Translations under genes and position numbers: made by a program | Shown: positions 164-38,436 of the stretch, piece by piece | Numbering within the stretch: position 1 is the stretch's first letter | How the letters are laid out: each line of letters opens with the position of its first letter | Notes under the pieces: model-generated | What the model was told of the DNA's origin: nothing | Database searches by the model: none | The model's input: only the letters and a program-made list of their open reading frames with translations | IMG/VR virus record: IMGVR_UViG_3300031669_006556 | Origin: a virus | Strand: one strand, 5' to 3' | DNA: 64,000 bases

Positions 164-180
164 TTACAATACGTCAAAGA
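164..180 (-). promoter_or_regulatory. 17-nt motif TTACAATACGTCAAAGA (plus strand) immediately 5' of a minus-strand tRNA; second copy at 38420-38436
   Basis: Exact 17-nt repeat found at both sites. On the minus strand it reads TCTTTGACGTATTGTAA and contains TTGACG. Confidence 0.4.
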
Positions 181-227
181 TCTATGATTTTTTAAATGAA
201 ATCTAACATTATAAGCTAAAAAAGGCG

Positions 228-255
228 GAGAGAACTTAATCTTTCCGCCTTTAGT
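228..255 (-). terminator. Rho-independent terminator (GGCGGAGAG...CTTTCCGCC hairpin plus T-run on the minus strand)
   Basis: Inverted repeat followed by a T-run when read on the minus strand. Confidence 0.5.
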
Positions 256-550
256 ATATCTTTTTACAGTTAGTTATATTCCTGTTTTTGATCTCCTTTC
301 AGCGGACAAAATCCTTCCCTTTGCGTTGCCTTTATCATCGGCCACGTTCCAAATATTCATAATATTTCTTCCTTTTGTCATTGCTGAAAGCTTTAAACTT
401 TATTTAATATTCTATTTTATTATATATCATGCAAAAAGTTTCACATTAATTCAACTTAATGCATAAAAATCTATTTGCTGTTAGTTTCCGCCGTTTCCGG
501 TAATCATTTAATCTATGCTCACATAGACACAAACAGACTATTCAATTTAT

Positions 551-610
551 GCTAATATAATACTTTTTATTGGGATAAAAAAATTTTTAGGCAATTATTT
601 TCAAATTCTT
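551..610 (-). promoter_or_regulatory. Copy of the conserved intergenic promoter-like motif (variant TAATATAATAC...GGGATAAAAAAAT...GGCAATTATTTTCAAA)
   Basis: Matches the recurrent ~55-nt motif; lies upstream (minus sense) of nothing in this window and downstream of ORF 616-1050. Confidence 0.5.
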
Positions 611-615
611 TTCTA

Positions 616-1050
616 TTAATCACCGGTCCAATTACCTGTACCTGCATAAAAATTATGGAGTGCCTCATTTCCATTTCTTACATGCTCATGCCATCTGTTA
701 CTTCCATTAAGTTTCCAAGAATAACCATAACTCTTAATATAAGTTTCTTCCCAAAATCCTTCATCCCCAAATCTTTCAATAAACTCTTCTTTATACTTTT
801 CAAATTGTACAAGACTGGTCATTACTCGACTTGACATATGATCAATTGGCATTTGAATAGACGGTTTTTTCTTATTCAAAGTTTCTTCTGACCAACCAGA
901 TACTCTTCTACGAATATCATCCATGTTTCTAATGGAATCAATCCACTCATTATGTTTTTCCCAATCTTCTTGAGTAGGTTTAACATCATCCCATGTCATT
1001 GTTTTAAGATCCACTTTACGCCTAACGAAACCATCTTCTACTTCTTTCAT
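616..1050 (-). CDS. hypothetical protein
   Basis: 144-aa ORF with AT-rich coding composition like its neighbours; no motif recognised. Confidence 0.5.
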   Translation of the reverse strand: MKEVEDGFVRRKVDLKTMTWDDVKPTQEDWEKHNEWIDSIRNMDDIRRRVSGWSEETLNKKKPSIQMPIDHMSSRVMTSLVQFEKYKEEFIERFGDEGFWEETYIKSYGYSWKLNGSNRWHEHVRNGNEALHNFYAGTGNWTGD

Positions 1051-1099
1051 TCTTTTATGTTTGTATGTTTACTATCAATAAAAAAATTGGTGCACACCC

Positions 1100-1630
1100 A
1101 CAGAAAAGTTTCTCCATGCCCTTGGTTTAAAGGGGATTCGCACCAATTGAGTTTAGCATCTGGCGTTCTACATATATCATCTTGAACTCATACGCGAAAC
1201 TACGTACTATAACAACCATCTTGTTCAAGACACCTGCCGAATCAGTAGCCGTCTCCTGCCCCAAAGTTGCATGGTGGCCTAGCTGAACGGTATCAGCATA
1301 AAGTAGTGAGGAAAATTCGGTTACCTCAAAACCTCGGTGATATTTCTTTTACTATCCCTATCACATAGGAAGATTAATGTCCATTATTACTTTAAGAGTT
1401 CTGGCACTGATTTCTATTTTAAGATGATCTTCAGTTTTTCAGCTTTTTTACCACCGCCCAAGGCCTCTACATAAGAGCCTTAACATTTTGCAGATGACTG
1501 CGCCTAGCCGTATTACAGCTTCAGCATTAAGACTCCAGGTTACCTGGTATTCACTGAACCCAAATCCCCGTCTAATTCGGGTTTAACTTTCACCCTCTTG
1601 GTAACAACTTTCATTAATATTTTAAAGAAC
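1100..1630. ncRNA. GC-enriched ORF-free block (~530 nt); candidate structured non-coding RNA
   Basis: No ORF of 60 aa or more on either strand. GC is visibly higher than flanking coding DNA, and local hairpins are present (e.g. CCCTT-TAAACC-AAGGG on the minus strand). Confidence 0.35.
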
Positions 1631-1631
1631 T

Positions 1632-1976
1632 TCATTTCCCCATGAAACCACCGGCTCCTAAGGTAATTATATCTAATCCTACAAGGATTGCCACAGTTGC
1701 TAATGCAAATGCAATTCCAACCCAAATAGCTACTCTCCAATTCATTCCTCTTGCTTGTTTCTTTGCATAATCAACAACAGTAGATGGCATAGTAACTACT
1801 TCCTTTTTAGGAGTCTTAGGATTATCAACTAAAACAATGTCCATAGATTTTTTAATTCTTCTGGAATCTTCTCCATCAAAATCAATTGTCCAAGTTTTAG
1901 TAGTTTCAGCTGTAATAACACCAAGAAATTGATCTCCATTGGTATAAGTTACTTTTACTTTATCTCCTATTTTCAT
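1632..1976 (-). CDS. hypothetical membrane-anchored protein (C-terminal transmembrane segment)
   Basis: ORF ends with a hydrophobic stretch AIWVGIAFALATVAILVGLDIITLGAGG. Confidence 0.5.
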   Translation of the reverse strand: MKIGDKVKVTYTNGDQFLGVITAETTKTWTIDFDGEDSRRIKKSMDIVLVDNPKTPKKEVVTMPSTVVDYAKKQARGMNWRVAIWVGIAFALATVAILVGLDIITLGAGGFMGK

Positions 1977-2004
1977 AACACTATTATTTATAATATTATA
2001 GTCT

Positions 2005-2062
2005 TAATATAACCAAAAGATTCGAAATAAAAAAATATTTGAGGAATTATTTTCAAAAAATT
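2005..2062 (-). promoter_or_regulatory. Conserved intergenic promoter-like motif
   Basis: TAATATAACCAAAAGATTCGAAATAAAAAAATATTTGAGGAATTATTTTCAAAAAATT. Confidence 0.55.
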
Positions 2063-2439
2063 ATCTAAGCATTCTCTCAGTCCATCCTTTTAATTCTTCC
2101 ATGAATTCAATCAATTCATCTTGACTTAATTTTGGAAAAACTTTAGATCTCATGTAAGCAACTAGGTCTCCAAATGTTTGAGACACTTTATCATCATATC
2201 GTTCCTCAATATTCTCTTTAACTAATTTCATTTTATATAAGCTGTTTTTACTTTCGGGTTTTGTTTAACTTTTTCTATATATTGCCAAGGCTTCTCAATA
2301 CCCTGATATTCCTTTTTGTACCCGTTAAGGTATACTACCACAACTGTATAAACTTTTGGTCTGAGTGGCACTATTATACCCTCAAAGAACTCTCTTCTTG
2401 TATTCTTGAAAAATGGATGCATTTGTCCCTTTATTTTAT

Positions 2440-2787
2440 TTATTCATAAGGAACAGCGTGATTTTCATTTATTAGTTGTTGATTAATTGAATTAGACCAT
2501 TCTAAAACAGGAGTATCAATATAATAAACCTCTGCTAACCATCTTCCATATTTTCCTTTTTCATCTTTATAAGTTTTCAAAAGAACTTCTTTTTCAAGAA
2601 TTAAATCTCTTACTCTATCTCTAGCTAAAATTCCTTTTGGCCTTTCTTCTCCTCTCATTTCCCATGCATCAATTTTTAACCAACGAATAACTTGGTTTTT
2701 TATCCAAACACCAAATCCTAAATCAATATCTACTCTCATTGTATCAGCATCGTATACATCAATAACTTTCGCTTTATATTCGTACAT
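2440..2787 (-). CDS. staphylococcal (micrococcal) nuclease-like protein
   Basis: SNase-fold motifs: VIDVYDADTMRVDI ... RWLKIDAWE (compare RLxGIDAPE) ... GRWLAEVYY. Confidence 0.5.
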   Translation of the reverse strand: MYEYKAKVIDVYDADTMRVDIDLGFGVWIKNQVIRWLKIDAWEMRGEERPKGILARDRVRDLILEKEVLLKTYKDEKGKYGRWLAEVYYIDTPVLEWSNSINQQLINENHAVPYE

Positions 2788-37722: not shown

Positions 37723-37796
37723 AGTGCATAGGAGAATCGAACTCCTGTCTCCGGGTTGAAGGCCCGACGGCGTATAACCACTTGCCTAATGCACCA
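37723..37796 (-). tRNA. tRNA with anticodon TTC (Glu) and C33 in loop CCUUCAA; second Glu-anticodon gene
   Basis: Acceptor GGTGCAT/ATGCACT, anticodon arm TCGGG-CCTTCAA-CCCGG, T-arm AGGAG-TTCGATT-CTCCT. Confidence 0.5.
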
Positions 37797-37800
37797 TTTG

Positions 37801-37875
37801 TACCACCGGTCGGAATCGAACCGACGAAAATGCGGGTCTAAGCCGCACCCGTATTCCAACGTCCGGAACAGTGGC
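37801..37875 (-). tRNA. class-I tRNA with anticodon TAG (Leu codon CUA)
   Basis: Acceptor GCCACTG/CGGTGGT, anticodon arm TGCGG-CTTAGAC-CCGCA (perfect), variable TTTTC, T-arm GTCGG-TTCGATT-CCGAC. Confidence 0.6.
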
Positions 37876-37931
37876 AGGTTCTGGTAGGAGACCCGGATTA
37901 ACCCCGGTTTTATTTTTTAACCTTACCATTG

Positions 37932-38006
37932 TCTGGGTGAAGAGATTCGAACTCCCGAACACCTGGCTCCAGACCAGGCCCATATAGCCACCTGTGGAAC
38001 ACCCAG
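37932..38006 (-). tRNA. tRNA with anticodon TGG (Pro) and C33 in loop UCUGGAG; second Pro-anticodon gene
   Basis: Acceptor CTGGGTG/CACCCAG perfect, anticodon arm CCTGG-TCTGGAG-CCAGG, T-arm GGGAG-TTCGAAT-CTCTT. Confidence 0.5.
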
Positions 38007-38020
38007 ATAAAGTAGAGAAA

Positions 38021-38100
38021 AGCAGGCGAGTGATACAAGACGGAGTTGAACCGTACTGATTTGTTTTAAGCAAACTGTGCTACCATTACACGCGAAGTAA
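38021..38100 (-). ncRNA. tRNA-like element (D-arm, anticodon arm GTTTG-CTTAAAA-CAAAT, T-arm ACGG-TTCAACT-CCGT) lacking a pairing acceptor stem
   Basis: Three tRNA arms recognisable, but the 5' and 3' termini are non-complementary. Confidence 0.3.
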
Positions 38101-38123
38101 CTCATCCAATTACTACTACTTAG

Positions 38124-38191
38124 TGCCGCCGGAAAGATTCGAACTTTCACGCTGAGGTTTTACAGACCTGTCGTCTCCCTGGATCGTCGGC
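38124..38191 (-). tRNA. truncated tRNA-like gene (68 nt, reduced D-arm) with anticodon GTA (Tyr)
   Basis: Acceptor GCCGACG/CGGCGGC (1 mismatch), anticodon arm CAGGT-CTGTAAA-ACCTC, T-arm GAAAG-TTCGAAT-CTTTC. Confidence 0.35.
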
Positions 38192-38261
38192 ATACTAGAC
38201 TTTTTACGAACCGGTGTTCACCTGATTAATCAGGGGGTATTTTTCATTCTAGAAACCTTCG

Positions 38262-38337
38262 TGGAAAGAATCGGGATCGAACCGATGGCCTCTGGGACTT
38301 CACTCCAGCGCTCTACCAAATACTGAGCTACCTTTCC
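38262..38337 (-). tRNA. tRNA with anticodon GAA (Phe-like), A31.C39 mismatch
   Basis: Acceptor GGAAAGG/TCTTTCC, D-arm GCTC-AGTATTTGGTA-GAGC, anticodon arm CTGGA-GTGAAGT-CCCAG, T-arm ATCGG-TTCGATC-CCGAT. Confidence 0.55.
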
Positions 38338-38340
38338 AAT

Positions 38341-38416
38341 TGGTGTGATGGGACGGAATCGAACCGCCGACACATGGATTTTCAGTCCATTGCTCTACCT
38401 ACTGAGCTACCACCAC
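38341..38416 (-). tRNA. tRNA-Phe (anticodon GAA) with encoded CCA
   Basis: GTGGTGGTAGCTCAGTAGGTAGAGCAATGGACTGAAAATCCATGTGTCGGCGGTTCGATTCCGTCCCATCACACCA; canonical Phe-like D, anticodon and T arms. Confidence 0.85.
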
Positions 38417-38419
38417 ATA

Positions 38420-38436
38420 TTACAATACGTCAAAGA
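38420..38436 (-). promoter_or_regulatory. Second copy of the 17-nt motif TTACAATACGTCAAAGA, immediately 5' of tRNA-Phe
   Basis: Exact repeat of 164-180. Confidence 0.4.

Follow-up and report, generated by a model that had tools for sequence, protein, structure and literature searches.

A conserved element abutting phage tRNA genes is a probable boxA antitermination site of the Bacteroidota type

We analysed a stretch of 64,000 nucleotides of viral DNA (IMG/VR record IMGVR_UViG_3300031669_006556, hereafter the window), in which a conserved element of 20 nucleotides lies immediately upstream of two distant tRNA genes. BoxA is a short RNA signal by which bacteria load Nus factors onto RNA polymerase in order to read through long untranslated genes. 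Judging from its sequence, the element is probably a boxA antitermination site of the Bacteroidota type, which would load host Nus factors and protect long untranslated transcripts of tRNAs and noncoding RNAs (ncRNAs) from Rho. We file boxA itself as a known kind of signal and its setting at phage tRNA and ncRNA arrays as new; no description of boxA at phage tRNA arrays was found in the literature searched, and searches for the sequence itself returned nothing relevant.

The core of the element, the 17-mer TTACAATACGTCAAAGA, has exactly two matches on the plus strand of the window, at positions 164-180 and 38420-38436, and no further copies were found in the 64 kb when up to three mismatches were allowed. 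All long open reading frames (ORFs) and all 17 tRNAs called by ARAGORN lie on the minus strand, so that the sense reading of the element is TCTTTGACGTATTGTAA. The tRNA genes, located by ARAGORN and Rfam, occupy positions 76/77-159 and 38341-38416 of the minus strand, and the gaps from the 17-mer to the tRNA 5' ends are therefore four nucleotides (160-163) and three nucleotides (38417-38419), which confirmed the coordinates and the minus sense given for both sites in the original prediction. The repeat alone was weak evidence, because two or more matches with three or fewer mismatches also turned up in 4 of 100 shuffles; the non-random feature is the position of the 17-mer and not its mere repetition. 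Because a T always follows the 17-mer and position -2 is always G, the conserved block was taken as 20 nucleotides, G-N-TCTTTGACGTATTGTAAT (minus strand, 163-182 and 38419-38438). The first copy (163..182) reads 5'-GATCTTTGACGTATTGTAAT-3' and is followed by three T and then by G+1 of tRNA-Lys. The second copy (38419..38438) reads 5'-GGTCTTTGACGTATTGTAAT-3' and takes up most of the 27-nucleotide spacer between tRNA-Gln and tRNA-Phe, the order being tRNA-Gln (38444-38517), five nucleotides, the 20-nucleotide element, two nucleotides and, immediately 3', tRNA-Phe(GAA) (38341..38416, minus strand; ARAGORN and Rfam).

Exact-match scans with the 17/18-mer returned 27 loci from IMG/VR and 56 metagenome loci (L numbers designate individual comparison loci or contigs). 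Sixteen of the 27 IMG/VR matches fall in one homologous coding sequence and were counted as a single chance event, and the remaining matches make up about 30 distinct phage and metagenome contexts in which the element is letter-perfect. Further copies had thus rightly been expected elsewhere, though the window holds no more of them. A tRNA or tRNA-like gene was located 0-6 nucleotides downstream in the same orientation in 9 of the 27 IMG/VR loci and in about 29 of the 56 metagenome loci, and the sense orientation and a downstream RNA gene were common to all of the roughly 30 distinct contexts, in agreement with the earlier proposal of a conserved cis-element tied to the expression of tRNA genes. 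The gene that follows is most commonly a tRNA-Lys(UUU) with a hairpin inserted in the D-loop, and otherwise tRNA-Phe(GAA), tRNA-Gly(GCC), a long tRNA-Gly(UCC), tRNA-Gln or a long tRNA-like RNA. Flanking sequence and tRNA both vary from context to context, and the linker between the element and the tRNA 5' end (0-6 nucleotides) consists of A and U only. Loci that match at only 14 of the 18 positions, obtained from masked-pattern IMG/VR scans (TCTTNNNNGTATTGTAAT and TCTTTGACNNNNTGTAAT) and used solely as a negative control, were tRNA-adjacent in 0 of 237 cases among the matches listed, compared with roughly half of the exact matches. In 213 kb of related DNA there were 31 exact copies, none with one or two mismatches and five on the same strand with three or four mismatches, three of which are tRNA-adjacent; this tally is partly biased because each locus was fetched via an exact match.

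Three types of context were found. At the head of a tRNA array, the element lies 13-45 nucleotides past an intrinsic terminator, as does the first copy of the window, and the distance from the terminator T-run is only 13 nucleotides in L024, L313 and L333. It can also be wedged between two tRNAs, as is the second copy of the window, or be located 7-20 nucleotides 3' of the standard promoter box of the phage (L007, L015, L292 and L309). Position -2, which was not constrained by our searches, holds a G in all 31 unique contexts, in contrast to the variable positions -1 and -3.

Degenerate relatives of the motif in the window and in related loci (for example GTTCTTTAAAATATTGAAAA, TCTTTAACATATTGAAAG and TTTTTAACATATTGTAAA) all precede tRNAs or large structured RNAs, and it was their resemblance to boxA that led us to test this identification. 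The boxA of leaders of clustered regularly interspaced short palindromic repeats (CRISPR) prevents Rho termination of the untranslated arrays, and 52 such 20-mers are available (Stringer et al. 2020, eLife; PMC7665894, Supplementary file 4), with Bacteroidetes entries from Tannerella forsythia (AGTTCTTTGACATATTGAAA), Odoribacter (AGTTCTTTGACATGTTGAAA) and Haliscomenobacter (CGCTCTTTGACAAGTTGGTA). The phage 20-mer with its two-nucleotide prefix, AGATCTTTGACGTATTGTAA, agreed with the Tannerella boxA at 17 of 20 positions (the score of the first copy of the window), the 3' half included, and with that of Odoribacter at 16 of 20. Matches of at least 17 of 20 to any of the 52 published sites occurred 0.83 times per 128 kb in shuffled window sequence, and the real window contained four, all on the sense strand: the two copies of the element, the canonical site at 35335 described below, and one spurious site without the TCTTT core.

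The crystal structure shows that the base-specific contacts of NusB/NusE are limited to nucleotides 1-8 of boxA (PMC3177189). The contacted core, N-G-N-U-C-U-U-U, is present in both the first copy (AGAUCUUU) and the second (AGGUCUUU), and nucleotides 1-8 of the first copy equal the start of the experimentally validated Salmonella CRISPR boxA (AGATCTTT). The prefixes GG, GA, GT and GC are all found among the 52 published sites, and the G at position -2 in 31 of 31 contexts corresponds to the invariant G of boxA, which fixes the register. At the level of sequence, these comparisons add evidence for a Bacteroidota boxA of about 20 nucleotides with a conserved 3' half, and the identification leads us to expect a boxA akin to G-Y/A-TCTTTGAC-R-T-R-TTG-W-AA in the rRNA leaders of Bacteroidota.

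The exact 18-mer, that is, the block without its two-nucleotide prefix, gave 14 matches in bacterial genomes, most of which are due to chance (the 18-mer of L269, for instance, belongs to the C-terminus of a gene). In a Paludibacteraceae metagenome-assembled genome (MAG), GA followed by the 18-mer comes after cas1 and cas2 and about 115 nucleotides before a CRISPR array, whose strand it shares; this is the niche where boxA was defined for CRISPR arrays. One uncultured Bacteroides MAG has three contigs (L265, L267 and L276) with a common sequence (...CGCTTCATCGATCAGCTTGGTTGC) at whose outer end the exact 18-mer is found, here prefixed by GC (GCTCTTTGACG...); unique DNA follows each copy. The arrangement resembles the end of a repeated or mobile element with an outward-facing boxA.

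The window also contains canonical boxA copies. The gamma-proteobacterial boxA consensus is GYTCTTTAANA (PMC5725501), and five perfect matches to it (GTTCTTTAAAA) were found, all on the sense strand, when about 0.9 is expected; none of 100 shuffles gave as many. Structured RNAs, GOLLD included, come immediately 3' of three of the sites (38664, 35334 and 34298). The first (38654..38664, minus strand, as for all five) comes right after tRNA-Gln and before a long tRNA-like RNA. The second, of the canonical Bacteroidota type (CGTTCTTTAAAATATTGAAA, 35316..35335), is located past a small ORF and about 10 nucleotides 5' of a large structured RNA of which GOLLD forms the 3' part, and the third, canonical boxA-like (AGTTCTTTAAAAAATTGAAT, 34280..34299), between GOLLD and the next structured RNA. 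Of the other two, one (1620..1630) is just past the stop codon of the ORF at 1632-1976, and the other (36936..36946), 3' of tRNA-Tyr and within the upstream part of a promoter box, has the least clear function of the five. GOLLD itself (34385..34868, minus strand; Rfam RF02032, 162 bits) has an embedded tRNA-like domain at 34726-34795, and boxA copies punctuate the untranslated island that contains it.

Canonical forms were also found in phage contigs, TCTTTGACATATTGAAA at 60 loci and the 19-mer GTTCTTTAAAATATTGAAA at 46 loci, when a rough estimate gives about 1-2 by chance, and these fill the same slots as the 18-mer. The order is terminator, boxA and tRNA-Cys in L385, and tRNA-Glu, boxA and tRNA-Phe in L353. 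In L411 and L404 it is promoter box, boxA and large ncRNA, the arrangement seen at about 35300 in the window, where the boxA at 35335 precedes the large RNA; in L416, L433 and L436 it is TATATTTG promoter, boxA and an untranslated leader of 370-500 nucleotides. The last three contigs, together with L401, L430, L438 and L439, are viral contigs with a Bacteroidetes-type -7 box. In all seven, the TATATTTG promoter is followed by a small hairpin (GTAG..CTAC in some, GTAA..TTAC in others), the canonical boxA, the untranslated leader of 370-500 nucleotides and ORFs. This group suggests that the use of boxA is widespread among phages of Bacteroidota. The conserved RNA located 3' of boxA in L401, L416 and their relatives was considered as a possible rRNA, which was ruled out; it is a long mRNA leader.

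From these sequences and positions we infer that the element is transcribed, that it is bound by NusB/NusE and that Rho is the threat it counters. Transcription would start at a nearby promoter or carry on from the preceding tRNA, and the element would be transcribed within the short leader of the tRNA or tRNA array, the nascent RNA exposing G-N-UCUUU. The host NusB-NusE(S10) heterodimer would bind the first eight nucleotides (N-G-N-U-C-U-U-U) and nucleate the Nus complex on RNA polymerase, as at rRNA operons and CRISPR arrays, and the modified polymerase would withstand Rho-dependent termination across the untranslated array, with the outcome that kilobases of tRNA genes, tRNA-like RNAs and GOLLD-type RNAs would be transcribed by the phage. 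The leader would later be cut off by RNase P at the tRNA 5' end, the A/U linker setting the element directly on the cleavage site. The copies inside the island (38664, 38436, 35334 and 34298) may reload or reinforce the complex, like the leader and spacer boxAs of rRNA operons, and the 3' half GTATTGTAAT, common to the boxAs of Bacteroidetes CRISPR leaders, presumably makes contact with another part of the complex. Among the 60 ORFs of the window scanned with Pfam, none was found to encode a Nus, antiterminator, sigma or RNA polymerase protein, and dependence on host factors is thus the simplest assumption.

Comparison with the CRISPR-leader boxA (Stringer et al. 2020, PMC7665894) showed that both are leader boxAs of a long untranslated and repetitive array of RNA genes, where Nus recruitment would oppose premature Rho termination. 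However, the phage element heads tRNA and ncRNA arrays and abuts the first structured RNA at 0-6 nucleotides, and several phage copies punctuate one island of RNA genes. With the boxA of rRNA operons and its rrn complex (NusB, NusE, NusA, NusG, SuhB and S4), it shares the core G-Y-U-C-U-U-U read in nascent RNA and the presence of copies both at the start of and within an operon of several stable-RNA genes that includes tRNAs, whereas the phage allele has an A at position 3 and a G at position 12, and lacks a recognised boxC and a supported boxB. As at the nut sites of lambda (boxA, boxB and N), a phage would exploit host Nus factors via a boxA in its own transcripts, but the phage 18-mer has no defined boxB hairpin, is followed directly by a tRNA, and targets stable-RNA genes and not delayed-early mRNAs. 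No N-like protein was found among the 60 Pfam-scanned ORFs, N proteins being small and poorly covered by profiles. A GTAGTAA...GTTACTTCG hairpin, often located about 8 nucleotides past the canonical boxA in related contigs, could be boxB-like.

Phage tRNA arrays and GOLLD are long untranslated transcripts and hence natural targets of Rho, and how phages secure the synthesis of such RNAs was not found to be addressed in the literature searched. If the identification as boxA is correct, Nus antitermination would extend from rRNA, lambda nut and CRISPR to the stable-RNA islands of Bacteroidota phages, boxA would make the starts of such transcription units easy to recognise in sequence, and mutation of boxA or inhibition of Rho would give a testable handle on the expression of GOLLD RNA.

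Several observations weigh against the identification as boxA. The 18-mer, in its context GATCTTTGACG, disagrees three times with GYTCTTTAANA, the consensus of gamma-proteobacteria (Y to A and, twice, A to G). With a weight matrix made from the 52 published boxAs, both copies ranked outside the top 22 sites of the window, this matrix being dominated by Proteobacteria and Cyanobacteria and performing no better than shuffles in such AT-rich DNA. The Bacteroidetes boxAs used for comparison are CRISPR-leader sites that are themselves only predictions. At array heads where the terminator lies only 13-45 nucleotides before the element, a promoter would have to fit into that interval or share bases with the element; a -10-like TTTATAATG right after the T-run is a candidate for the feeding promoter at such heads. 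BoxB-like hairpins located 4-9 nucleotides upstream (GATTT/AAATC at some loci and GCTTT/AAAGC at others, with a few apparent compensatory changes) were no better than shuffles in most loci, and no boxC companion was recognised. The letter-perfect conservation of 18 nucleotides exceeds what the NusB/NusE contacts explain and, to our knowledge, tight abutment on tRNA 5' ends is not a property of any known boxA.

The main rival explanation, which we regard as unlikely, is that the element is a compact promoter, used by a host sigma with a phage co-factor or by a phage polymerase, with initiation at or just before the +1 of the tRNA. Such a promoter would fit the location of the element directly after intrinsic terminators at array heads (at 13 nucleotides in the three loci named above), the resemblance of its TATTGT, 5-8 nucleotides from the tRNA G+1, to a -10 hexamer, and an all-or-none conservation that recalls phage-polymerase promoters. 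The original prediction had pointed to TTGACG and to a possible promoter; with TTGACG as the -35 box, such a promoter fails for lack of a -10 box at 16-18 nucleotides, and 17 nucleotides downstream falls inside the tRNA. A sigma-70 scan called nothing at either copy, and sigma-70-like matches in the region were no commoner than in shuffles. One promoter box, TTTTTTTATCCC-N-TTGGTTATATT(T)G, which we take to resemble the -33/-7 promoter type of Bacteroidetes, stands before about 21 genes of the phage. The element lacks the TAnnTTTG/-33 architecture of these boxes, and a full promoter box is already present 7-20 nucleotides upstream of it in L007, L015, L292 and L309. The sigma-AB promoters of Bacteroidetes, which Bayley et al. 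reportedly described in 2000 as having TTTG at -33 and TAnnTTTG at -7, are like the phage element AT-rich and upstream of genes; the 18-mer, however, has neither their two-box architecture and spacing nor TAnnTTTG, and is downstream of such a box in the same four loci. The element also occurs between tRNAs that are only 25-27 nucleotides apart, and no RNA polymerase or sigma was found in the window by the Pfam scan. Finally, Salmonella and Bacteroidetes belong to phyla with different promoter types, so that a sequence conserved in the CRISPR leaders of both is unlikely to act as a promoter.

Another unlikely possibility is that large Bacteroidota phages use boxA for more than protection from Rho, and that the exact host-type copies, set directly before strongly transcribed RNAs (tRNAs, tRNA-like RNAs and GOLLD), recruit an rrn-like Nus complex as a co-transcriptional folding and processing chaperone, or act as a sink for Nus factors that starves the CRISPR arrays and rRNA operons of the host. 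The rrn antitermination complex is also an RNA-folding chaperone (PMC5725501, PMC3177189, PMC10250234). The sink version would amount to an anti-CRISPR strategy by competition, the 18-mer being identical at the CRISPR array of at least one Bacteroidales genome, and under either version the letter-perfect conservation of the 3' half would reflect an additional reader.

The original prediction had also considered a tRNA processing determinant. The constant distance of 0-6 nucleotides from the mature 5' end and the A/U-only linker would suit a signal in the 5' leader recognised by RNase P, another endonuclease or the Thg1-like or repair enzymes of the phage, which encodes Thg1-like, RlaP, PTH2 and HD proteins. 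This explanation is improbable: few tRNAs carry the element, most tRNAs of the same arrays being without it, and RNase P does not require such a leader. Moreover, the identical sequence precedes a bacterial CRISPR array, and canonical variants precede RNAs other than tRNAs, namely GOLLD and long mRNA leaders. Also quite improbable is a DNA operator through which a phage or host regulator, such as the OmpR/PhoB-type winged-helix protein encoded at 58756-59454, would time tRNA expression. Specific DNA-binding proteins typically recognise invariant sites such as this one of 20 bp, and the window does encode a Trans_reg_C protein, but the site has no dyad or direct-repeat symmetry, and an RNA signal accounts better for its strict sense orientation relative to the RNA gene and for its presence in a CRISPR leader in the boxA register (G at -2). 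A scar of tRNA-gene mobility or recombination site, as had been suggested earlier, or a chance repeat, is very improbable: although tRNAs for Lys, Phe, Gly and Gln follow the element in different phages and the significance of the 17-mer repeat by itself is weak in 64 kb, the tRNAs are not bracketed by a second repeat on their 3' side, each array head has one copy, always in the sense orientation, and the control loci were devoid of adjacent tRNAs among the matches listed.

The window has a G+C content of about 31% and a single direction of transcription, and its sole similarity to a known record was a faint match to a 462-kb uncultured phage. We read it as part of a large phage, with a host among the Bacteroidota because of a type IX secretion system (T9SS) sorting domain and TAnnTTTG-like promoter boxes. 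The promoter box, in another notation ATTTTTTTATCCCA-N5-TTGGTTATATT(T)G, is highly conserved and has its roughly 21 sites on the minus strand (for example at 62319, 48901, 40052, 36916, 35720, 35626, 11304 and 2016), with a TTGAAAAAAGTTGCCCAAA module upstream of some boxes (39131, 35750 and 35657); often only 3-17 nucleotides separate it from a start codon, and the mRNA leaders are by implication very short. Two promoter boxes flank a partial copy of the motif in inverted orientation, TCAAAAACGTATTGTAAT (35681-35698, plus strand). The 12-nucleotide motif complement that it provides at about 35690 was considered as an antisense partner and rejected, as the homologous stretch in L015 is without complementarity.

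The protein set is unusual for a phage (regions 30771-33224, 21488-23191, 54524-55282, 52869-53966, 48452-48901 and 3915-14204). It includes a major-vault-protein-like protein (Vault_3 and MVP shoulder), TROVE/Ro60, a Thg1-like 3'-5' nucleotidyltransferase, RlaP and PTH2, a near-complete NAD salvage set (NAPRTase, NAD synthase, NadR-like, nicotinamidase and NUDIX), and Macro, flotillin and TonB-dependent-receptor-like proteins. The window also encodes one protein with a T9SS sorting tail. No relatives of the protein gene upstream of the first copy of the element were found in IMG/VR.

About 430 nucleotides upstream of GOLLD, as far as about 35300 and the boxA at 35334, are GC-rich and structured, and are probably the variable 5' half of the same RNA. 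On its other side, a structured-looking noncoding stretch of about 580 nucleotides (33700-34280, minus strand), which starts with a GTAGTAAGATTAGAGTTACTTCG hairpin, extends from the boxA at 34298 to a terminator at about 33700. It had no Rfam match even at E<=0.1 and may be an undescribed large RNA. A recurrent unit consisting of the hairpin GTAGTA(A/G)...GAGTTACTTCG and a partial or odd tRNA-like sequence was seen at 38120, 37270, 34280 and 23640 (minus strand) of the window and in L398, L399, L403, L414, L415, L420, L426 and L440. Its end is often ...TTTTCTCAG(T/A)TTTATTT, with the next tRNA following at once, and in other contigs the unit is frequently located about 8 nucleotides 3' of a canonical boxA. 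One copy has a promoter box (23650) on one side and the TROVE/Ro60 gene on the other; identification of these hairpin and tRNA-like units as YrlA/Y-RNA found no support in Rfam.

The first copy of the element is preceded by an intrinsic-terminator-like hairpin (221..252, minus strand; GGCGGAAAG...CTCTCCGCC and a T-run), which is the end of the upstream operon, 38 nucleotides before the copy, and is kept in related loci. In L012, L026 and L321, about 80 nucleotides 5' of the element, a tandem duplication of the leader (AATGTTAGATTTCAGTAAAAAATCAT) is followed by a degenerate motif copy (TCATTGACGAATGGTAAG) joined to a tRNA 3' fragment; this arrangement is the remnant of a rearranged array head.

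The tRNA that follows the first copy (77..159, minus strand) is the first gene of a tRNA array that runs past the start of the window (compare L325), and a small terminator-like hairpin comes right after it (63-76, minus strand). It had been described as atypical, which holds for its enlarged D-loop of 14 nucleotides with a GGC-GAAA-GCC hairpin; its identity is tRNA-Lys(UUU) and not Arg(CCG). A motif-independent search with the body of this tRNA (YCGTAGCAAAGTGGAGS) matched only unrelated GC-rich DNA. This phage tRNA-Lys(UUU), its D-loop extended by a GNRA-capped hairpin, is conserved and was also seen in L012, L018, L280, L288, L289, L294, L306, L320, L326 and L329, and in L016 the extra hairpin is in the variable region instead; ARAGORN miscalls the hairpin-bearing tRNA-Lys as Arg, Asp, Ser or Ala. 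This variant could escape host anticodon nucleases that target tRNA-Lys. Lastly, a tRNA with a CUA anticodon (amber suppressor, called 'Pyl' by ARAGORN) at 26482-26555 of the minus strand hints at reassignment or suppression of a stop codon in part of the phage life cycle.

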